From assembly GCA_964194935.1 (NCBI GenBank), contig CAXMOL010000067.1:85-64084 (forward strand): a DNA stretch of 64,000 nt. Direction: 5' to 3'. The notes beneath the pieces are model-generated. The model ran no database searches and had not been told where the DNA came from. It was given only the letters and a program-made list of their open reading frames with translations. Position 1 is the first letter of the stretch. Every line of letters begins with the position of its first letter. Positions 9,156-42,643 of the stretch are shown piece by piece. A program made the translations under genes and the position numbers. Origin of the DNA: an uncultured Kiloniellaceae bacterium. Its GTDB lineage: Bacteria; Actinomycetota; Acidimicrobiia; Spongiisociales; UBA11373.

Positions 9156-10316
9156 GTGACCAAACGTGCCAAGTTGTGGCTGATCCGCGGTGTGACCATC
9201 GCTCTGCTTGTCGCTGGCGCCCTGGTGGTCGTAGCCAGTTGGATGCAGGCCGGTACCGTCGAATCCAATTGGCTCGCGGTTTCTCACCAGACGCCAGCGG
9301 GCACAGCCGTCGTCGTAGCGGTCGAACCCGATCGTGTAATCCTCAGCGACAACGGGGGAGCCGACGTCGCCGGTGTGTGGGGCCTCGTGTTTGATGGCGG
9401 CCGTGCCGTGGTGGGCGAGGTCGAGTCCGGTTCCGATGAGCAGATCGTGCGCAGCCTTCTCGAAGTGACCGGTGGACTTACTCCGGGTACCGAGGTCTCA
9501 CTCGATGTGGCGGTGTGGGGTGCCGATGCCGTGGGTCGCTTTGGACTAACCACCGATGTCATCAGCGGACCCGATGGACCACTCCCGTTGTGGACCGCAC
9601 CCGGTGTTGATGACACGTGGGTGGTCTTCGTGCACGGCAACGGGGCAGATCAGAGTCAGGCGTTGCGGATGGTCCCGGCGGTGACGGCAGCGGGGTATCC
9701 GGTTGCAATCGCCGGCCTTCGCAATGATGAGGGCGCTGGTCCCTCGCCTAGCGGTAGGCACGGCTTCGGCTACGACGAATGGCGAGACATCCAGGCCGTG
9801 ATCGATTTTGGACTTGGCGCCGGAGCGCTCGACTTCGTTCTCGTGGGATACGGCTCGGGCGGCTCGATCGTCGGCACCTATTTGTACGAGTCTCGTTCTG
9901 CCGACCGAATTCTCGGAGTTGTGCTCGATTCGCCGATGTTGAGCCTGGCGACGGCGATCCAGGATGAATGGACCGACCGGGGTGTCCCCGGTTGGGCGGT
10001 CGGCTGGACCAAAGCCATCGCCTCCATGAGATTCGGGCTCGATCTCGGGGCCATCGACCACGTCGAGCGAGCCAATGAGTGGACGGCCCCTGTCTTGATC
10101 TTGCACGGGCGCGACGATGCGGTGAACCCGTTGGATGCCGCTGCGGCCTTTGCGATAGAGCGAGGCGACGATGCGTTGTTACTGACCTTCCCCGGCGCCG
10201 GTCCCGACGCGCTGTGGAATATTGATCCGACTCGATACGAGGCTGCTTTCATCGGATTTGTGAACGAAGTAGCAGCTGCTGTCAGCGCATTCGAACCAGC
10301 CGATCCGGGACGGTGA
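9156..10316 (+). CDS. membrane-anchored alpha/beta hydrolase
   Basis: N-terminal TM helix (LWLIRGVTIALLVAGALVVVA), VVFVHGNG, nucleophile elbow GYGSGG, distal LHGRDD. Confidence 0.7.
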   Translation: MTKRAKLWLIRGVTIALLVAGALVVVASWMQAGTVESNWLAVSHQTPAGTAVVVAVEPDRVILSDNGGADVAGVWGLVFDGGRAVVGEVESGSDEQIVRSLLEVTGGLTPGTEVSLDVAVWGADAVGRFGLTTDVISGPDGPLPLWTAPGVDDTWVVFVHGNGADQSQALRMVPAVTAAGYPVAIAGLRNDEGAGPSPSGRHGFGYDEWRDIQAVIDFGLGAGALDFVLVGYGSGGSIVGTYLYESRSADRILGVVLDSPMLSLATAIQDEWTDRGVPGWAVGWTKAIASMRFGLDLGAIDHVERANEWTAPVLILHGRDDAVNPLDAAAAFAIERGDDALLLTFPGAGPDALWNIDPTRYEAAFIGFVNEVAAAVSAFEPADPGR

Positions 10317-26268: not shown

Positions 26269-27774
26269 TCAACTCACGCCACAGATCTCACCCAGTGGCG
26301 GGATGCCCAACTGTTCCGACGTCGTCAACGGGTCACCTGACAGCACCCGCGCCACGGTGTCTCGGATGACCGAGACGATTGGGACCCAGTAACCCTGCGG
26401 GTTCTTGGCGACGTAGGCCGTGCCGGTGCCGACCAGTTCGGGGGCGTTCGGCATGAACCGCACTGAGATCATCGATCGGGTGTCGACCGACGTGGCGAGT
26501 TCGATGAAGTCTGGCCACGCAGCCACCGGAATGTCGGTGATGACGCTGGCCTGGATGGCGGGCACCAGGCCAGGTAGCTCCGAGATGAGTGCGACGGGAT
26601 TCATCTGTGCGGCCAATGCTTCCAGTACGCAGCGCTGCCGTCCCATGCGGTTGTAGTCGTCGCTGCCCCGTCGGACCCGGGCGTACGACAACACCTCCTC
26701 GCCATCCATCTCGTAGGTGCCGGGGGCGAACAGCACCGGGATCTCATCGCCGCCGGGACGGGTGTACTGCTCATCCTCCACGAATGAGGTGACTGTGATC
26801 GTGAGTCCGCCGAGGGCGTCGACGATGGACACGAACCCGAGGAGTTCGACGAGGGCGTAGTTGTGGATGTCGATCCCGTAGAGGTACTCCACCAGGTCCA
26901 TCACCGCTCGCGCCCCCGAGTTGTTGCCTCCCGGAAAGAGTTCGGGATGATCCAGGCCGTACTGATAGATCGTGTTGGCCAACTCGGGGTAGCAGTGGCA
27001 CTCCCATTCGTTGTAGGCCGGGTGGTCTTCGGGAAAAGGGAGCTCGATCTGATTGCGGGGCAACTGCAACAGTGCCGCATCTCCAGTGACCGGATCAACC
27101 GAAACCACGATGATTGAGTCGGTTCGCAGCCCGGGCCGGTCCGGTCCGGCGTCGCCGCCGAGCAGCAGCACGTTTATCCGCCGTTCCGCCAGCGGTGCGA
27201 GCGTTGTGGACGTCGTGGTGGGAGCGATCGTTGTCGTCGTGGGCGCGACGGTGCTGGTCGTCGCCGGAGTCGTCGGTGGAGTTGTCGCCACCGTGATCGT
27301 CGTCGTGACTGCTGCCTGACCCGGATCGACCGAGTAGTCGTAGGTGAGCAGGTCATACAGGGCCAGGTTGCGTTGGGCGGCCCAGGCGTGTGGTGCGGCT
27401 ACTGCTATTGCGAAGACAGAAAGTAGGGCCGCAACTGTGAGAAGCCGTTTTCCGGCAAAGCCTCCACCGGCGAGCCAGTACGCATCCAATGCCGCCAGAG
27501 AGCGAAACGCCAGGACCGCCACATTGGCCGCGAGGAGGAGCAGTAGGTATCCGGGATGTTCGAAGAACGGGCGGATTAGGTCGAGTGCGAATGCCTTGCC
27601 GTCGCTGAACAAGAGTGCAATCCCGACGATCGTCACCGGTAGGGCGACGATCAGAGTGAATGCGAGGAGCGCGGCTCCACGCCGCCGATGTCCTGCGAAC
27701 AGATGCCCCAGTCCAGGGATTAGTCCGCTTAGAAAGGCGGCGACCACTGGCGATGCGGGTCCACGCAATCCCAC
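26269..27774 (-). CDS. LytR-CpsA-Psr (LCP) family cell-envelope phosphotransferase
   Basis: Four N-terminal TM helices, a Thr/Pro-rich linker, then INVLLLGGDAGPDRPGLRTDSIIVVSVDP, typical of the LCP catalytic domain. Confidence 0.8.
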   Translation of the reverse strand: MGLRGPASPVVAAFLSGLIPGLGHLFAGHRRRGAALLAFTLIVALPVTIVGIALLFSDGKAFALDLIRPFFEHPGYLLLLLAANVAVLAFRSLAALDAYWLAGGGFAGKRLLTVAALLSVFAIAVAAPHAWAAQRNLALYDLLTYDYSVDPGQAAVTTTITVATTPPTTPATTSTVAPTTTTIAPTTTSTTLAPLAERRINVLLLGGDAGPDRPGLRTDSIIVVSVDPVTGDAALLQLPRNQIELPFPEDHPAYNEWECHCYPELANTIYQYGLDHPELFPGGNNSGARAVMDLVEYLYGIDIHNYALVELLGFVSIVDALGGLTITVTSFVEDEQYTRPGGDEIPVLFAPGTYEMDGEEVLSYARVRRGSDDYNRMGRQRCVLEALAAQMNPVALISELPGLVPAIQASVITDIPVAAWPDFIELATSVDTRSMISVRFMPNAPELVGTGTAYVAKNPQGYWVPIVSVIRDTVARVLSGDPLTTSEQLGIPPLGEICGVS

Positions 27775-30579: not shown

Positions 30580-31047
30580 TTGGTGCGGGGAGGATGTGAA
30601 GTGCGACCGTCAGGAGGGCAAGTGGGTCAGGAGCCGAATATCCACGTTGGGTTCGAGAACTTGCCGCGTGCGGTCCCGGAGCCGGCTGCACCGGCGCGCT
30701 GGTTACCGCAACGGCCAGGTGACTTTGTCTCGCCGGACGAGGTGCCCTGGGGTGGAGTCTTTGGCACCCCGGGACCGGACACCGGATTTGCGTACAAGAT
30801 CGTCAAGAACCTCGATCTGCCCGGAGGAGCGCATCGTCGCTCCGACATCGAGGCGGTCCTCGTCGCTGTGATGTCGGCGCGGTCCTCGTCGATCGGCCGT
30901 GCTCCGACGGCCGCGGATGCCCCGGTGGCGATCGATCTCCTGGAGCTCACCGAAGCTTCGGCAGACTCCTTTGCCGGAATCGCTCACGACCACGTCCGGC
31001 TCGGCGCCGTCGTCGCGGCCATCCCAATGGAGCGCCTCACCTCATGA
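30580..31047 (+). CDS. hypothetical protein
   Basis: 155-aa ORF with a 4-nt overlap to the downstream FAH gene. No recognisable motif. The start codon is uncertain (several in-frame GTG). Confidence 0.4.
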   Translation: MVRGGCEVRPSGGQVGQEPNIHVGFENLPRAVPEPAAPARWLPQRPGDFVSPDEVPWGGVFGTPGPDTGFAYKIVKNLDLPGGAHRRSDIEAVLVAVMSARSSSIGRAPTAADAPVAIDLLELTEASADSFAGIAHDHVRLGAVVAAIPMERLTS

Positions 31048-31808
31048 AGATCGTGCGTGTAAAGCTCAAGGATGATGAGATCGCATACGGAGCGGTCGAA
31101 CCAGAGGGGGTTCGAGTCCACCTTGGATCACCATTCGTGGCCTGGGAGCCGACGGAGTCCGTGCTGTCGTTCGACGAGGTCCAGCTCTTGGCCCCGGTCT
31201 TTCCGACCAAGATTGTGGGCATCGGTCGTAACTACGCCGAGCATGCTGCGGAGCAGGACGCCGCGGTACCCGACGAGCCGGTGATCTTCTTAAAGCCGTC
31301 GACTGCGGTGATCGGCCCCGGTCAGCCGATCGTTCTTCCACCCGAGGCGAGCATTGTTCACCACGAGGCCGAATTGGCGATCGTTGTCGGGAAGGTGAGC
31401 CGCAAGGTAAAGGCCGAAGACGCCTCGGCTCACATCATCGGTTACACCGCGGCCAATGATGTCTCGGCCCGCGACCTCCAGGCCAAGGATGGCCAGTGGA
31501 TACGGGCCAAAGGATTCGACACCTTCTGCCCTCTTGGACCTGCGCTTGAAACGGAGCTGGACCCTGTCGGGTTGTCGATCACCTGTGCGGTAAACGGTGA
31601 TATCAAACAGGACGGCAACACCGAAGACATGGTGTTTGGAGTTGCCGAGATCTTCGAGTTCGTAAGCCGAGTGATGACGCTGCTTCCGGGCGATGTGATC
31701 CTGACCGGTACTCCTGCCGGAGTCGGGCCGTTGATGGCCGGCGACTTTGTCGAGGTGTCGATCGAACGGATCGGCAGCCTGACCAATCCGGTAGTTGTCG
31801 GATCATGA
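31044..31808 (+). CDS. fumarylacetoacetate hydrolase (FAH) family protein
   Basis: KIVGIGRNYAEHA, EAELAIVVGK and GDVILTGTPAGVG. Confidence 0.85.
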   Translation: MKIVRVKLKDDEIAYGAVEPEGVRVHLGSPFVAWEPTESVLSFDEVQLLAPVFPTKIVGIGRNYAEHAAEQDAAVPDEPVIFLKPSTAVIGPGQPIVLPPEASIVHHEAELAIVVGKVSRKVKAEDASAHIIGYTAANDVSARDLQAKDGQWIRAKGFDTFCPLGPALETELDPVGLSITCAVNGDIKQDGNTEDMVFGVAEIFEFVSRVMTLLPGDVILTGTPAGVGPLMAGDFVEVSIERIGSLTNPVVVGS

Positions 31809-33247
31809 GCGTTCGGGTCAGGTTCGCTCCATCACCAACCGGCTACCTCCATGTTGGAGGCGGCCGTACCGCGCTCTACAACTGGCTCTTCGTGCGTCAT
31901 CACGGTGGTGAATTCATCCTGCGATCCGACGACACGGATGTTGAACGATCGACCGACGAGTTCCGCGCCGACATCCTCGACAGCCTGCGCTGGCTCGGAA
32001 TCGACTGGGACGAGGGCGTTGAAGTGGGCGGCCCACAAGGCACCTATCGGCAAAGCGACCGGTTCGAGCGCTACGCCGAGGTTGCAGCGGGATTCGTGGC
32101 TGCCGGTGTCGGCTACTACGACGGCGCCACTGCCGAAGATCTGCAAGCCATCCGCGACGAGGCAACGGCCTCTGGTTCTTCGCCGGTCTATGACGGCCGC
32201 CATCGACTGTCGGTGGCCGAGGCGCAGGAACGGATCGCCGCCGGATCACCGCCGCCGATCAGGTTCGGCATAAGCCGGCCGGGAACGACGCGGTTCGATG
32301 ACGCGGTCCGGGGCGAGGTGGTGTTCGAGCATGCCAACGTCGATGACTTCGTGATTCTCCGTAGCGACGGTTCTCCGACCTACCACCTGGCGTCGACCGT
32401 CGACGACGTCGACTACGCCGTCACCCACGTCGTTCGCGGTGAGGACATTCTGTCTTCCACGCCCAAGCACATCCTGATCACTGAGGCGATGGGGGTGGAG
32501 CCGCCGATATACGCCCACCTGTCACTTCTGCATGGCCCTGATGGCAAGAAGCTCTCCAAGCGCCATGGGGACACGGCGATCCGGGCCTATCGCGATGCGG
32601 GCTTCCTGCCGGAAGCGGTGGTCAACTTTCTGGCGATCCTCGGTTGGTCTCCCGGAGACGATGAAGAAATCGTCTCGCTCGACGAGATGGTGCAGCGGTT
32701 CGAGTTGAGCGCCGTTTCCAAGAATCCGGCTGTTTTCGACACGACAAAGCTCGAGTGGATGAACGGCATGTACATCCGTGAGATGGGTGCTGAGGATTTT
32801 GCGTCCCAACTCGGGGCGCTGGTCGGAACCGATCTCGGGCGTGAGTTGTCGGCTGGCGAAATTCAGGCTCTCGTCGACCTGGCGCCTCTCGTGCAAGAGC
32901 GCGCCAAATTGTTGACCGAGGTTGCCCCCCAGGTGAGGTTCTTGTTCGTCGATGAAGTCGAATACGACGAGGCCTCTTGGTCCAAGGCAATGAAGGCGCC
33001 CGCAGCCGCGACTGCATTGCGTGGTGCCGCGGTGGCGATGGCGGATGTCGAGTGGACCCATGACGGTGTAGAAGCGGCGCTGCGGGCCATGCTCGACGAA
33101 CTGGGATTGTCGGCCAGCAAGGGCCTCCAACCGCTACGGGTGGCGCTCACCGGATCCTCAGTGAGTCCGCCACTGTTCGAATCGATTGTCGCCGTCGGTC
33201 GGGAGTCGACCGTGGCCAGGTTCGAGGCTGCATTGGCCCGACTCTGA
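31805..33247 (+). CDS. gltX: glutamate--tRNA ligase
   Basis: RFAPSPTGYLHVGG (HIGH) and KLSKRHG (KMSKS). Confidence 0.95.
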   Translation: MSVRVRFAPSPTGYLHVGGGRTALYNWLFVRHHGGEFILRSDDTDVERSTDEFRADILDSLRWLGIDWDEGVEVGGPQGTYRQSDRFERYAEVAAGFVAAGVGYYDGATAEDLQAIRDEATASGSSPVYDGRHRLSVAEAQERIAAGSPPPIRFGISRPGTTRFDDAVRGEVVFEHANVDDFVILRSDGSPTYHLASTVDDVDYAVTHVVRGEDILSSTPKHILITEAMGVEPPIYAHLSLLHGPDGKKLSKRHGDTAIRAYRDAGFLPEAVVNFLAILGWSPGDDEEIVSLDEMVQRFELSAVSKNPAVFDTTKLEWMNGMYIREMGAEDFASQLGALVGTDLGRELSAGEIQALVDLAPLVQERAKLLTEVAPQVRFLFVDEVEYDEASWSKAMKAPAAATALRGAAVAMADVEWTHDGVEAALRAMLDELGLSASKGLQPLRVALTGSSVSPPLFESIVAVGRESTVARFEAALARL

Positions 33248-33322: not shown

Positions 33323-33394
33323 TCGGGGGTGGTGTAATTGGCAACACAGCGGGTTCTGGTCCCGTCGTTGAGGGTTCGAGTCCTTCCCCCCGAG
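33323..33394 (+). tRNA. tRNA-Gln (anticodon CTG)
   Basis: Hand-folded cloverleaf: acceptor TCGGGGG/CCCCCGA, anticodon stem GCGGG/CCCGT with loop TTCTGGT, T-arm GAGGG-TTCGAGT-CCTTC. 72 nt, CCA not encoded. Confidence 0.85.
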
Positions 33395-33419
33395 CGAAGG
33401 TGGTATGAATACCGCCCTC

Positions 33420-33492
33420 GGCCCCGTCGTCTAGCGGCCTAGGACGCTGGCCTCTCAAGCCAGTAACGCCGGTTCAAATCCGGTCGGGGCTA
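33420..33492 (+). tRNA. tRNA-Glu (anticodon CTC)
   Basis: Hand-folded: acceptor GGCCCCG/CGGGGCT, anticodon stem CTGGC/GCCAG with loop CTCTCAA, T-loop TTCAAAT. 73 nt, CCA not encoded. Confidence 0.85.
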
Positions 33493-33594
33493 CGTTGTCG
33501 AGAAGTCGCTCGTCATGATTCGCCGGGTTGCTGTTCACCACCGGGCACATGTTGAGAGCGGGATCGACCCGGTAGAGTCACCGAACTCTGCGCT

Positions 33595-33631
33595 GAGGGG
33601 ACTATGACCGCGAGGGGACTATGACCGCGAG
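33595..33631 (+). repeat. perfect 17-bp tandem duplication (gaggggactatgaccgc x2 plus 3 nt) spanning the RBS and start codon
   Basis: Read directly: copy 1 is 33595..33611, copy 2 is 33612..33628, and the next 3 nt also match. It creates two ATGs (33604 and 33621) in different frames. Confidence 0.9.
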
Positions 33632-35903
33632 ACGAATCATCCGCTGGCTGGTTATGGCCGTACTTGTTGCCCTGGTCACCCCTATCGCCCTGGCCCAGTT
33701 GGACCTCGCCATTACTGGACACGTGCGTGAGCACGGTTGGAATGACGAGCAGGTAGACGCACTCACCAACAACGCTTGGATCGTCGACGGCCAAACCCAG
33801 ATGTACGGGTTCGGCGACGACCCGATGAGTCAACCTGGCGTTTCTGAAGAGGAGGCGGCGGGGACCATCCCATTCGCCATTGGAGCCGAGTACGTACTGT
33901 TCACCGACGAGCGCTTCCTACCGCCCGCTGTCTCGGGTACGACCGTCATGCCCGATGGCAAGGTCGTGATTCCGTATGGTGCTGGGCCGATGGAACTCAA
34001 TGTCGAGTACCTCTGGGTGTGGGCGGAGTTCAAGGGCGACATCAATTACTTGCAGCCTGGCGCCGGCTACAACATCGGCTGGCCGATCATGGCCCGCGGC
34101 GCAACCGGCTGGTCGTCCCCGTTCCTAGGGGACTCGTGGACCGGTGGCAGCCATATCCCGCACTTCTTCAACGACCCGAATCAAAGTGATCCGGAGTCGG
34201 CCTGGACTGCCGGAGTGTCGATCGTCAACGACAACGGTGGACTCGACGGCTACCAGGGACCGGGCGGAGTGGCCTGGTTCCACGGGAATCAAGCAGGCAT
34301 GTACATCCCCGCGGATCTGTTTATGCAGACCTCCGAGCAGCACATCGAGTCCTACGGGTTCGCTGCCGATTACACCATGGGCGCCCAGTCCCAGTTCGAT
34401 CCGAGTGCGCCGCGCACGGTGACGGTGTTTCCGGGCAACTTTACGGCCGAAGGCCGCCAAGGCGGGCTCGAGCCATTCGACCAGACAGGTCGGTTCCGGA
34501 TCAATGTCGGCTTCGAGCCCTACTCCGACATCGTCGACGCCAGTCTGATGTACGACGCAGAGGACCGGTTGTGGGCTGCCCTGACGCCGCTGCGGCGTTG
34601 GCCGGCCGAGGATCCCACCGGTCACTTCCTTGACGCGTTCTTCTCGATGGGCCTCATATCGGGCATCTCCTATGGCGACATGTCGGGGCCTCTGGTTATC
34701 AACGAATTTCACGACGGCGTCCACAACACTCTCGGATTCAATGACTCGGTGGAGTTCACTCCGTCGCTGGGGTATGTGCTCAATGACGGGTCGCTGAGGA
34801 TTCGACTCGACTACAGCTTTAGACAGCTCGAGTCCGACACCGACAAGGTGACGTTGTTCACATCGGGCGCCTTCTGGCGCGATGGGTCGGACGAAAACGG
34901 AAGACAGCAAGTGGACGCCGAGTGGGAGTTCGACGTGTCGGAGATCCCCATGCTCGACTTCGGCTCACCAGGTGGCCTCTTCGTGACATATGACCTCTTT
35001 AATGATGAACAGGTGGCGCCGCCGGCAGGAAGCGGCGACCCGGAACCGGAGGGATCGACCGACGACGCCGCAGCCGTGACTGACACCACCGGTCCGATTG
35101 GATCTTCCGATGAAGACGAACCGATCGAAGACCTGGGGCTTGGCCTGATCACAGTTGACCTCGGCGACGACACCTGGGACGGGTGGGGTTGGGGCCTCGC
35201 CGGGCTGCTCACGGTGGCGCTCATCGGACCCATCTTTCTGTGGTTCAAGCCACTCGATTGGTGGACCTGTTGGCTGCCGTGGTTCATCGGAATCTTTGTC
35301 TGGACGCCGTTCCTCTTGGCGTGCTTGTGGTGGGGTAGCCCATCGTGGTGGTGGGTCCCGCTGTTGGCCTGGTACCCGATCATCGGTGGGTACACGTGGT
35401 ATTGGGCCCGTAACCGCGACTGGTGGCAGGACGAGTACATCTACTACGTGGGCGGCTATCTCGGCGTTCTCGCGGTGGCGACTGTCGTGGTTGGATCCCC
35501 CGAGTGGGGATTGCTCCTGCCGTTGTACTGGGTGCCGTGGGTCGGCTTCTACGTCTGGTTCCGCGGCCAGCATCAGCCGTGGTGGGAACAGTGGATGTGG
35601 GGCGGGACGGCCGTCTACGTGGGATGGAACTTCATTTGGGTCGCCGCGCTCACTCCATGGTGGGCCTGGTGGCTCCCAGTGGCGACGGTCGGATTCGTCG
35701 GGTGGTGGTTCCCGCGACGCGGCTACGAATGGTCGGCGCTCTGGCTGGAGCCCAAGTGGTGCTGGACGCTCCCGTTCGTCCTTCTTCCGTTCTTCCTGTG
35801 GTGGATTCCGGTGTGGGGAGCCTGGTGGTTGATCGTCTTGCTGTTGTTGCTGCTTCTGCTCGTGGGGAGTTTCGGATACCAACGGCGCAGCGAGGACTGG
35901 TAG
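33621..35903 (+). CDS. hypothetical secreted/membrane protein with an extremely Trp-rich polytopic C-terminal region
   Basis: Uninterrupted 760-aa ORF. Signal-like N-terminus MTARRIIRWLVMAVLVALVTPIALAQ, a ~480-aa domain of no recognised family, an acidic linker, then ~255 aa of hydrophobic segments packed with W (WW, WWW and PWW motifs) ending in an L8 run. Confidence 0.7.
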   Translation: MTARRIIRWLVMAVLVALVTPIALAQLDLAITGHVREHGWNDEQVDALTNNAWIVDGQTQMYGFGDDPMSQPGVSEEEAAGTIPFAIGAEYVLFTDERFLPPAVSGTTVMPDGKVVIPYGAGPMELNVEYLWVWAEFKGDINYLQPGAGYNIGWPIMARGATGWSSPFLGDSWTGGSHIPHFFNDPNQSDPESAWTAGVSIVNDNGGLDGYQGPGGVAWFHGNQAGMYIPADLFMQTSEQHIESYGFAADYTMGAQSQFDPSAPRTVTVFPGNFTAEGRQGGLEPFDQTGRFRINVGFEPYSDIVDASLMYDAEDRLWAALTPLRRWPAEDPTGHFLDAFFSMGLISGISYGDMSGPLVINEFHDGVHNTLGFNDSVEFTPSLGYVLNDGSLRIRLDYSFRQLESDTDKVTLFTSGAFWRDGSDENGRQQVDAEWEFDVSEIPMLDFGSPGGLFVTYDLFNDEQVAPPAGSGDPEPEGSTDDAAAVTDTTGPIGSSDEDEPIEDLGLGLITVDLGDDTWDGWGWGLAGLLTVALIGPIFLWFKPLDWWTCWLPWFIGIFVWTPFLLACLWWGSPSWWWVPLLAWYPIIGGYTWYWARNRDWWQDEYIYYVGGYLGVLAVATVVVGSPEWGLLLPLYWVPWVGFYVWFRGQHQPWWEQWMWGGTAVYVGWNFIWVAALTPWWAWWLPVATVGFVGWWFPRRGYEWSALWLEPKWCWTLPFVLLPFFLWWIPVWGAWWLIVLLLLLLLLVGSFGYQRRSEDW

Positions 35904-40533: not shown

Positions 40534-42558
40534 TTATAGCTTGCCGAGCCTGATCGTGACCGTCGTGCCCGGATCGACCCACGTGCCCGGTCCCGGACTC
40601 TGCGATCTCACAGTGCCCACTTGGAGCGGATCGACGACCGGGAAGGAATCCCCGAAGTCCCTCTTGAGTCCCAGGGCGAGGAGTGCGGCCGTCGCCTCTC
40701 CCTCGGGGAAGCCACCGACAAGGGGGACCTGAACCGGGCACTCCACCGCTGCGTCGTACTGGATGTGATCTTCTGGCAGTTCGCACGGGTGGACCTCGTA
40801 GATGATGGAGTGGGGGGCGTATCTCCAAGTCCAGACCTGCACATCGTCTGTGCCGTCGGGATAGGTGATCGTCCGGGTGTCGGTGGCCGTGTAGCCCTGT
40901 GCTCCCTCGTCGGTGAGCTCCTTGTCGCCGGGGTGGAGCTCATCGTTGGGGCTGAGGTATTCCTCGGGTTCGGTATAGGCATAGGGGGCCGAGATGGCGC
41001 CGGCGACCTCGATTCCGCCGTCGTCGCCGAACATCTTCACCGTGACCCTGGTGTCGGTCGCCTCGGTCTTGATGTAGATGGCGTTTTCAGTGTTGTTTCT
41101 AAATACGAGGTTGGGCTCGGGGAACCCGAGAGTCGCTTCCCTCACCACCGGGTACCTCGAAAACTGCAAGGTATGCGGCTTGTGGAACACGTCCTCGAGT
41201 CCTGACCAATACACGGCGTTGTACAGCGTGGTGGTGAATTGGCTGACGCCACCTCCGACGTTGGCCGGGTGGTCGCAGCAGTACACGACCGGTCCGATGA
41301 TCGCTCCGGCCTCGCGATAGCCGTCCTCGAGAGTCCGCTTGCCCACGTGTTCGTTGAGGTTGAACTCTTCGCCGGGCATCACGATCGCGCCGTCTACCTC
41401 TTCGGCGATTCTCTTGATGTTGATGATCCTGTTTTGGTTCTTCTCGTCGCCGCAGCATGAGTAGTAGGTCTCGGCCGAGTACAACAGGTCTCGAATTCCG
41501 AGGGCCGCGGCATCGTCGGTGGTGAAATCCGGTTCTCTTCCGTCGAGGATGGGGAGAGGCCCGGTCCGGGTGACCGAGGTCGCTGCGTTGTAGACGGCTT
41601 CTGGAAGGTTTCCGTCGTCGATCAGAATCGCGTTGTAGCCGGTGAGAACCAGGGGTACGTCGTCGGGCCGGATGACGACAACGGCGTCGATCGGTTCGGC
41701 TTCTATCGCCGCGCGAATCGGGTCGAGCCAGCGGGCCAGTGGGCCGAGCTGAAAGAACAGCTCGATTTCGGGCTCGAGGGCGGTTCCGATCTGGCGGCTC
41801 GACACCGCATTGGCCAGGACAGATGGCGGGAATGTCACCGAGATCTCAGGAAGGATTCGACCCAGTGTTACCGGTTGTGAAATGAGTTCTTCGGCGCGCT
41901 TGACGGTGAGATCTACCTGCTCGTCGGTGACGATAGGCACCCGGAATTCAGTCACAGCTTGGACGATCCCGCGATTGGAACCGAGAACCTGGGCTTCGAT
42001 GAGATCGGCCGTTGCCTCGAAATCCAATCCTGTTCCTGGCTCAGGGTATATGGGGGTGACCGTGGTGCCGGAAAAGACGATCCCGCCATCTGTGGGTGGC
42101 GTTGTGATTGCCTGCGTTTCCCAAGTCTTCAGCAGCAGGAGGAGCGTCTGGCGGTCGTAGCTCGATTCGAAGGAGACTTCGAGAGGACCGCCGCCGAAGT
42201 GACTAAGCCACCAACCCAACTCGGTTACAAAGCCGCCATCACGACCGTGGGCAAGAGCTTCTTCGAGGATGGCCTCTTCGTTTATCCGATAGCTGAGCTC
42301 ACTCGGGAGCAACGTAAAGGTCGTTTCATCGATCACAACGTCGATGGGTTCGGCTGCCAGACGTGTCTCGATTCTGGAGATCACTGCCTGTGCGGCCTGC
42401 ACCTCGAGCCCACCCAGGTCGACACCAGCGACGGTGACCTGGCCCAGAATCTCGCCGTCATTGCTGGCGCGGTCCATCGCAAAGACCACCGACACCCATG
42501 TCAGCAAGACGATGGGAACGGCGACAACAAGTATTGCGATTCGAAGGTTTCGAGACAT
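40534..42558 (-). CDS. VanW-domain protein with N-terminal TM anchor and C-terminal PASTA domain
   Basis: TM anchor MSRNLRIAILVVAVPIVLLTW. VanW-like core (PGEEFNLNEHVGKRT...GGGVSQFTTTLYNA). The C-terminal ~60 aa match the PASTA pattern (GTVRSQSPGPGTWVDPGTTVTIRLG). Confidence 0.75.
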   Translation of the reverse strand: MSRNLRIAILVVAVPIVLLTWVSVVFAMDRASNDGEILGQVTVAGVDLGGLEVQAAQAVISRIETRLAAEPIDVVIDETTFTLLPSELSYRINEEAILEEALAHGRDGGFVTELGWWLSHFGGGPLEVSFESSYDRQTLLLLLKTWETQAITTPPTDGGIVFSGTTVTPIYPEPGTGLDFEATADLIEAQVLGSNRGIVQAVTEFRVPIVTDEQVDLTVKRAEELISQPVTLGRILPEISVTFPPSVLANAVSSRQIGTALEPEIELFFQLGPLARWLDPIRAAIEAEPIDAVVVIRPDDVPLVLTGYNAILIDDGNLPEAVYNAATSVTRTGPLPILDGREPDFTTDDAAALGIRDLLYSAETYYSCCGDEKNQNRIINIKRIAEEVDGAIVMPGEEFNLNEHVGKRTLEDGYREAGAIIGPVVYCCDHPANVGGGVSQFTTTLYNAVYWSGLEDVFHKPHTLQFSRYPVVREATLGFPEPNLVFRNNTENAIYIKTEATDTRVTVKMFGDDGGIEVAGAISAPYAYTEPEEYLSPNDELHPGDKELTDEGAQGYTATDTRTITYPDGTDDVQVWTWRYAPHSIIYEVHPCELPEDHIQYDAAVECPVQVPLVGGFPEGEATAALLALGLKRDFGDSFPVVDPLQVGTVRSQSPGPGTWVDPGTTVTIRLGKL

Positions 42559-42643
42559 CAAACTCAGTGGGGCGGGATGCGAGATTGTACCTGGGACCGC
42601 GGAATGTGGACTCAATTGGCGGGTCGTCCCTACCATCGTCGCA

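Follow-up and report, generated by a model that had tools for sequence, protein, structure and literature searches.

Results

A conserved gene for a tryptophan-rich protein

The window, the whole 64-kb stretch of contig CAXMOL010000067.1 that was analysed, carries downstream of gltX a gene for a protein with a predicted extracytoplasmic domain and a C-terminal membrane region extraordinarily rich in tryptophan (Trp). An earlier note, made from the sequence alone, had placed a 760-amino-acid (aa) open reading frame (ORF) at 33621..35903, quoted six Trp-rich peptides from it, and counted about 45 Trp by hand in its last ~255 residues; the ORF is present exactly as claimed, all six peptides are in its translation, and the count is exact (45 in aa 506-760). 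An identical protein is on record in NCBI and Logan without a name, and the sole name carried by any member of the family in the sources consulted is 'hypothetical protein'. The parts of the gene and its upstream flank are collected in Table 1.

Table 1. Features of the Trp-rich gene and its upstream flank, in window coordinates.
Feature	Position	Strand	Basis and remarks
Complete gene	33621..35903	+	760 codons, ATG start, TAG stop; ORF list
Perfect 17-bp tandem duplication (GAGGGGACTATGACCGC twice)	33595..33628	+	covers Shine-Dalgarno-like site/ribosome-binding site and start codon; direct reading of the sequence
Sec-type signal peptide, aa 1-25 (MTARRIIR / WLVMAVLVALVTPI / ALA, then QL)	33621..33695	+	read from sequence
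Ectodomain N-subdomain, ~aa 26-297, beta-rich	33696..34511	+	long-form relatives only; motifs include TQMYGFGDDP and GDSWTGGSH
Ectodomain C-subdomain, ~aa 298-470, beta-sandwich-like	34512..35030	+	common to all ectodomain-bearing members
Acidic low-complexity stalk, aa 471-517 (DPEPEGSTDD...SSDEDEPIEDLG...)	35031..35171	+	sequence; alignments A1 and A5
Helix TM0, aa 518-540, outside to inside	35172..35240	+	AlphaFold2 helix 14-36 of the modelled segment
Seven-helix Trp-capped core H1-H7, aa 546-728, first residues DWWTCWLPWF	35256..35804	+	alignment A3, AlphaFold2 model
Helix H8, aa 735-759 (AWWLIVLLLLLLLLVG...)	35823..35897	+	matches TM0 of the second unit in tandem relatives; alignments A2 and A3
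tRNA-Gln(CTG)	33323-33395		directly downstream of gltX, upstream of the Trp-rich gene
tRNA-Glu(CTC)	33420-33493		directly downstream of gltX, upstream of the Trp-rich gene

The G+C fraction at third codon positions (GC3) is 0.84 in frame versus 0.54 and 0.52 in the other two frames. Against an 81%-identical orthologue (locus L001), the ectodomain has a ratio of nonsynonymous to synonymous substitution (dN/dS) of 0.14, the linker one of 0.34 and the Trp-rich part one of 0.077; the values against a 50%-identical homologue (locus L002) are 0.31, 0.78 and 0.21 in the same order. The Trp-rich part is the most strongly constrained segment of the protein and the stalk the least. Frame-shifted relatives, which the earlier note had named as a finding that would speak against the protein, did not appear: the frame and the Trp positions are kept in more than 25 homologues. 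The gene and its frame are genuine, conserved and under purifying selection.

Of the 59 Trp residues in the protein, 45 fall in aa 506-760 (17.6%) and 14 in aa 1-505 (2.8%). Against the 36 other likely genes of the window, whose mean Trp content is 1.7% and in which no 255-aa stretch holds more than 11 Trp, the protein is an outlier; the binomial probability of at least 45 Trp in 255 aa at the background rate is about 2e-31. In the membrane units of the family, 13-24% of a stretch exceeding 200 residues is Trp, about ten times what is usual and clearly more than in the Trp-rich membrane protein TSPO.

A membrane module of Trp-capped helices

The AlphaFold2 model of the membrane region (predicted local distance difference test, pLDDT, 88.6; predicted template modelling score, pTM, 0.83) contains nine helices, at aa 518-540, 551-572, 578-596, 606-624, 629-647, 658-676, 679-700, 711-727 and 735-759, in line with the eight to nine proposed before. 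The placement of the Trp residues in this model follows the helix ends: 25 are among the six residues at either end of a predicted helix, 14 are in the loops next to the helices and 6 are in mid-helix, so that 39 of the 45 sit at helix ends or in adjacent loops, and they do so on both faces. Nearly all helices open and close with a Trp cluster (WW-x-x-LP ... WW), and H3 (YIYYVGGYLGVLAVATVVV), which is rich in Gly, Ala and Val, has no Trp at all.

The same positions dominate the conservation pattern. In alignment A3, the 22 aligned units from which column conservation was taken, Trp columns are 76% Trp and 85% aromatic and all other columns show 38% identity, so that the Trp columns, whose conservation the earlier note had proposed to check, prove to be the most conserved across the units; 24 of the 42 Trp columns are at least 80% Trp in units that share only 30-60% identity. 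Ten positions are invariant by this count, nine of them Trp and the tenth K712; the unit residues listed as invariant from A3 are W548, W554, P563, W576, W577, W584, W595, W637, W673 and K712, with P563 standing in the list beside eight Trp. The other conserved non-hydrophobic positions are eleven prolines, typically in W-x-x-L-P near helix starts, and one glycine; Cys residues at helix ends are also conserved, as are K712, R648 and R597 in cytoplasmic loops. Column conservation over the 22 units shows no conserved charged or polar residue and no pore lining inside the membrane.

Basic residues are distributed asymmetrically about the bundle. Averaged over the 22 units, inner loops hold 1.4-2.8 Lys plus Arg each and outer loops 0-0.27, and the window protein has nine in its inner loops and none in its outer loops, which are 2-7 residues long. 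This clean positive-inside pattern predicts that the ectodomain lies outside the cell and the C-terminus of the window protein inside; a unit alone is predicted to start and end outside, and it is because H8 is present that the C-terminus is placed in the cytoplasm.

The repeat unit of the family consists of TM0 and seven further helices, about 213 aa in all, with the motif [DE]WW[TS]CWLPWF following TM0. The window unit has TM0, the seven helices, the start motif and the invariant positions, and scores 417 bits against the family profile. Many relatives carry two units in tandem, the last of which stops after H7. The window protein has one unit plus H8 and ends ...E-D-W-TAG (GAC TGG TAG, 35898-35903) at a point where two-unit relatives run on as E-E-W-W-T-C-W. 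Beyond what the earlier note described, then, the module aligns as a repeat that is often doubled, and the window protein appears to end after the first helix of a would-be second unit. The alignment suggests truncation from a two-unit ancestor, in which the stop could be a TGG-to-TAG change; the gap between the stop and the convergent dehydrogenase gene is only 60 bp, and nothing left of a second unit can be seen. Within the unit the hairpins H2-H3 and H4-H5 are homologous by hhalign (probability 97%, E = 1e-10), while other hairpin pairs give weak scores, of a kind that biased composition inflates; the unit would thus have arisen at least partly through duplication of a two-helix hairpin.

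The window protein departs from most of its relatives at the outer end of TM0, where it reads TWDGWGW and most relatives carry C-W-x-C-W; in the column of aa 523, 84% of the family has Cys and the window protein has Gly.

Signal peptide, ectodomain and stalk

The N-terminus, MTARRIIRWLVMAVLVALVTPIALA followed by QL, shows on inspection the n-, h- and AxA-type c-regions of a Sec signal peptide, and the N-termini of relatives have comparable Arg-rich n-regions, hydrophobic cores and AxA sites; both the signal-like N-terminus and the acidic linker (~aa 471-517) pointed out earlier are borne out. With a signal peptide followed by a soluble domain that the predicted topology puts outside, the window protein fits a Sec-exported, membrane-anchored surface protein, in agreement with the earlier idea that the Trp-rich region is a polytopic membrane module tethering an extracytoplasmic domain.

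The AlphaFold2 model of the ectodomain (pLDDT 90.6, pTM 0.88) is mostly beta. In local jackhmmer alignments the long forms, the window protein among them, align over the whole ectodomain and the short forms only from about aa 298; all family ectodomains are on this basis homologous, with the long form comprising two subdomains and the short form the C-terminal one. The C-subdomain has invariant residues W318, S342, H364, G390, P450 and D458 (alignment A5). Most relatives have a stalk rich in Thr and Pro; that of the window clade is acidic. Two relatives, P0002 and P0006, carry an extra Thr/Gly-rich N-terminal domain of about 100 aa (aa ~30-125) before the family ectodomain; it has no Pfam match and is probably immunoglobulin (Ig)-like.

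The start region has two peculiarities. The upstream copy of the 17-bp duplication gives rise to a six-codon out-of-frame mini-ORF (33604-33624, MTARGL*) whose TGA (33622-33624) overlaps the real start codon as ATGA; the duplication could have arisen by slippage and be neutral, or it could serve as a small element of translational coupling. At the L001 locus the signal-peptide coding sequence is in frame (9950-10010, …LIATRIRRWLVLAFLVGLAVPTAFA…) with no ATG, GTG or TTG upstream, and the public gene call of this orthologue begins at an internal GTG, leaving the signal peptide out; either the orthologue starts at a rare codon (CTG or ATC) or the gene call is wrong.

A rare family without described relatives

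Searches of Pfam, NCBIfam and PDB sequences gave no match for the window protein or ten relatives, nor, at lenient thresholds, for 22 membrane units and 14 ectodomains; the units had no Pfam match even at E <= 5. The family profiles of unit and ectodomain likewise found nothing among PDB sequences, that of A3 not even at E <= 10. When the membrane model was compared with the PDB by Foldseek, the best match was a SWEET sugar transporter with E = 2.3 and a TM-score of 0.3, which we count as no match; for the ectodomain model, compared with PDB and BFVD, only generic beta-sandwich matches (lectin-like, arrestin, Ig, phage tail) were returned, with TM-scores of 0.1-0.2. The literature searched contains no description of such a family. 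In agreement with the earlier note, which had recognised no family of this composition, no described family matches either half of the protein.

The likeness of the ectodomain to a haem-binding beta-sandwich subunit (2ivf_C, Foldseek probability 0.60, E = 0.035) was not significant, and the ectodomain was assigned to no family.

A word-indexed protein search retrieved two relatives with the whole protein and a third with the ectodomain; with the C-terminal 251 aa it came back empty, a negative that was discarded because the search also overlooked P0001 and P0002, both of them scored by local phmmer (1e-145 and 1e-122). An exhaustive hmmsearch with profile A2, built from four copies of the module, against 1.84 billion representative proteins matched 24 proteins at E <= 1e-3, 19 of them with E <= 1e-10; one of the 24, a eukaryote-like repeat protein, is spurious. 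A scan for one conserved peptide pattern in one genome per species (185,579 species) yielded 12 confirmed loci, all in metagenome-assembled genomes (MAGs) labelled Acidimicrobiia, Acidimicrobiaceae or Actinomycetota. It is a rare family, confined to uncultured Acidimicrobiia-type MAGs.

A few distant members do not have the family ectodomain; their soluble domains are unrelated and stand ahead of TM0 or behind the second unit, and both places (before TM0, and after the last helix of a two-unit protein) are predicted to lie outside. One such member, P0009 (locus L015, 8001-13802), has two Trp-rich units flanked by unrelated N- and C-terminal soluble domains, and its gene adjoins those of an LPLTG-motif surface protein (LPXTG type), a sortase and an unassigned exported protein, a cell-surface gene cluster.

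Gene neighbourhood

The Trp-rich gene of the window lies in the order gltX (31805-33247), tRNA-Gln, tRNA-Glu, Trp-rich gene, convergent short-chain dehydrogenase and ABC (ATP-binding cassette) ATPase; the two tRNAs are the only Rfam matches in the window. The L001 locus is syntenic with it. At least ten other genomes have instead uvrA, a small S-adenosylmethionine (SAM) methyltransferase, the Trp-rich gene and uvrC-rapZ-yvcK-pgk-tpi, and this uvrA-to-tpi arrangement is a conserved actinobacterial housekeeping order. The conserved chromosomal position fits a vertically inherited gene rather than a mobile element, and the Trp-rich protein is probably part of the envelope of these organisms, passed on by vertical descent. 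In most genomes, among loci L003-L011 and L014 and the P0003 contig, a class I SAM methyltransferase of about 230 aa abuts or overlaps the start of the Trp-rich gene; it is generic, scoring below every NCBIfam cut-off, and is absent from the window, and therefore gives no functional lead. No functional clue came from the neighbourhoods examined.

Elsewhere in the window are envelope genes typical of Actinomycetota, for a VanW/PG_binding_4/PASTA protein (40534-42636, minus strand) and a LytR_cpsA_psr protein (26269-27774, minus strand); together with an Rv2993c-like FAA hydrolase (31044-31808) they support the taxonomic assignment of the window, which was drawn from synteny and the distribution of the family.

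Discussion

A proposed platform with two aromatic belts

Given the placement of the Trp residues, the reading that we favour, and to which we give about an even chance, is that the protein represents a new family of polytopic platforms with a double aromatic belt that display extracytoplasmic domains. A Sec-type signal peptide would export the two-subdomain, beta-rich ectodomain, and an acidic, wall-spanning stalk (Thr/Pro-rich in relatives) would join it to the helical bundle. The Trp clusters would form two very dense belts at both membrane interfaces around the Trp-free H3, giving strong interfacial anchoring and fixing the hydrophobic thickness around the protein; the bundle would then be a rigid platform locked at a fixed bilayer depth, in effect a natural bundle of WALP-like helices, which holds extracytoplasmic domains on a stalk. 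The occurrence of the units once or twice, with soluble domains at either predicted-outside end, is consistent with the modularity of such a platform, as is the place of the distant member P0009 beside an LPXTG-type protein and a sortase. The anchoring or platform role, and any ligand that the ectodomain may have, are things that we infer from these features. So understood, a new family takes a known principle, that of anchoring surface proteins by aromatic belts, to an extreme.

Among the three roles that the earlier note had offered, the interfacial aromatic belt fits best, with 39 of the 45 Trp at helix ends or in loops and these positions the most conserved; for the pore and for the carbohydrate- or lipid-binding platform no positive evidence was found. 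Several observations weigh against an anchoring platform, however. The membrane part is more conserved than the ectodomain, which is unusual for a mere anchor and hints at an activity of its own, and eight to sixteen helices far exceed what anchoring needs; an intrinsic activity of the membrane part is therefore possible. In addition, the ectodomain to be displayed has no recognisable fold relative in PDB and BFVD.

Several known systems share traits with the family. It is established that Trp favours the interface between membrane and water, and helices flanked by Trp, of the WALP type, serve as the standard model for anchoring at that interface (PMC2841270). In WALP peptides and gramicidin A, a hydrophobic span has Trp pairs at both ends that sit at the lipid-water interface and fix the position of the helix, a design that PWWAWWLPVATVGFVGWWF and WLPWFIGIFVWTPFLLACLWWG share; those are synthetic or non-ribosomal single spans, whereas the window family has a genetically encoded bundle of 8 to 16 helices, and the likeness is one of way of working, not of homology. 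The order of signal peptide, large beta-rich ectodomain, low-complexity stalk and C-terminal anchor is also that of haloarchaeal surface-layer (S-layer) glycoproteins and other surface proteins with a glycosylatable, Thr-rich stalk, but their anchors are a single helix or a lipid, where the Trp family has 9-16 helices that form its most conserved part. The stalk next to the anchor, Thr/Ser/Pro-rich in the S-layer type, is Thr/Pro-rich in most Trp-family relatives and acidic, not Thr-rich, in the window protein. DsbB, VKOR and DsbD/CcdA have a CxxC at the extracytoplasmic end of a transmembrane helix, as do most relatives here; the window protein differs in having no CxxC, there is no match in sequence or fold, and no quinone-site or second Cys-pair signature was identified.

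Like the window protein, TspO/TSPO, the 'tryptophan-rich sensory protein', is a helical membrane protein of bacteria high in Trp and named for it (PMC8243069). Membership of the TspO/MBR family (PF03073) was rejected, as there is no profile match, the helices number nine against five, and no TSPO chain is among the Foldseek matches; the negative result against PDB sequences assumes that solved TSPO chains are among them. TSPO has five helices in about 160 aa with a Trp fraction under 10%, and it is without an ectodomain, which the window protein has.

Alternative explanations

The strength of constraint on the membrane part (dN/dS 0.077) would also suit a role in moving a hydrophobic, aromatic or carbohydrate substrate, as transporter, channel or scramblase, with the ectodomain capturing substrate outside the wall. 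Aromatic residues line sugar pathways in some channels, the internal hairpin repeat and the doubled unit of many relatives recall pseudo-dimeric transporters, and the top Foldseek match, albeit non-significant, is the SWEET sugar transporter noted above. That match, however, has E = 2.3 and a TM-score of 0.3, no transporter family of Pfam is found even at E <= 5, and the outer loops are 2-7 residues long; transport or scrambling is disfavoured because the membrane interior conserves neither polar nor charged residues and because the Trp lie at the interfaces, only six of the 45 being in mid-helix. We consider such an activity unlikely. A slim chance goes to a redox device, in which a chain of Trp and Tyr together with the CxxC of TM0 would carry electrons or holes to the ectodomain, either across the membrane or along it. 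The C-W-x-C-W at the outer end of TM0 in most relatives (84% in the Cys column), the further conserved Cys at helix ends, the extreme density of Trp and Tyr, the invariant His364 of the C-subdomain and the weak Foldseek likeness to haem-binding 2ivf_C all speak for it. But the CxxC is missing from the window protein, its clade and P0008 with the rest of the module kept, and because its clade has lost the CxxC a redox role is disfavoured for the window protein in particular; moreover, no His or Met is conserved in the membrane as a cofactor ligand, the Trp cluster at the interfaces with no evident chain through the bilayer, the DsbB, VKOR, DsbD and cytochrome families give no Pfam match, and the 2ivf_C likeness is not significant.

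Other proposals make the Trp content itself the point, or deny it any. Since Trp has a single codon, the 59 TGG make translation unusually dependent on charged tRNA-Trp, and the protein could serve as a Trp-demanding gauge of translation or as a Trp sink, a concept present in the literature for the 'Up-Trp' proteins of Chlamydia (PMC3937554). This is contradicted by the conservation of positions and not of number alone (24 of 42 Trp columns at least 80% Trp); the Trp also track helix ends, the whole segment folds confidently in the model, and the neighbourhoods examined show no link to trp genes, so that we hold a compositional role to be very improbable. That the Trp-rich region is an artefact, a wrong frame, a pseudogene or a low-complexity repeat that happens to translate into Trp, has a negligible likelihood. 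A 305-aa Pro-rich ORF runs antisense to the region (34965-35882), which could be taken in favour of another frame, but it is a mirror image and no gene, because TGG reads as CCA on the other strand; the GC3 of 0.84 in frame, the dN/dS well below 1 (0.077 against L001 and 0.21 against L002), the more than 25 homologues and the confident AlphaFold2 model mark the region as part of a conserved protein family.

Three further candidates were rejected. A screen against ultraviolet (UV) light, an idea that came from the uvrA and uvrC neighbours, does not hold because theirs is a housekeeping gene order and the window copy lies elsewhere, beside gltX; nor can cells this small screen themselves from UV. 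The idea of a GT-C glycosyltransferase or an exosortase-like enzyme was given up on account of the shortness of the outer loops, the cytoplasmic position of the conserved Lys and Cys and the lack of a Pfam match, and a signalling receptor was dismissed as the protein has no cytoplasmic domain.

Significance

The Trp excess is positional and conserved, and the purifying selection on it is strong. The idea that interfacial Trp belts anchor helices and set their depth is a long-standing one, for which synthetic WALP peptides and mutants in single residues have been the main objects of study; this family offers a natural test bed for it. A bolder reading, which we regard as possible though doubtful, sees in the Trp-capped hairpin bundle a new fold and superfamily that owes its function to the Trp belts as such. 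The bundle might then act as a mechanically extreme clamp that defines membrane thickness, organises the surrounding lipid and carries a wall-spanning surface structure or, less likely than a clamp, as an aromatic conduit of Trp and Tyr through which charge or a hydrophobic ligand passes. If this were true, it would be a kind of membrane module without a described counterpart. Both halves of the protein are sequence orphans with no convincing structural neighbour, from a poorly known uncultured actinobacterial class, and learning the role of the protein would add to knowledge of the cell surface of the Acidimicrobiia.

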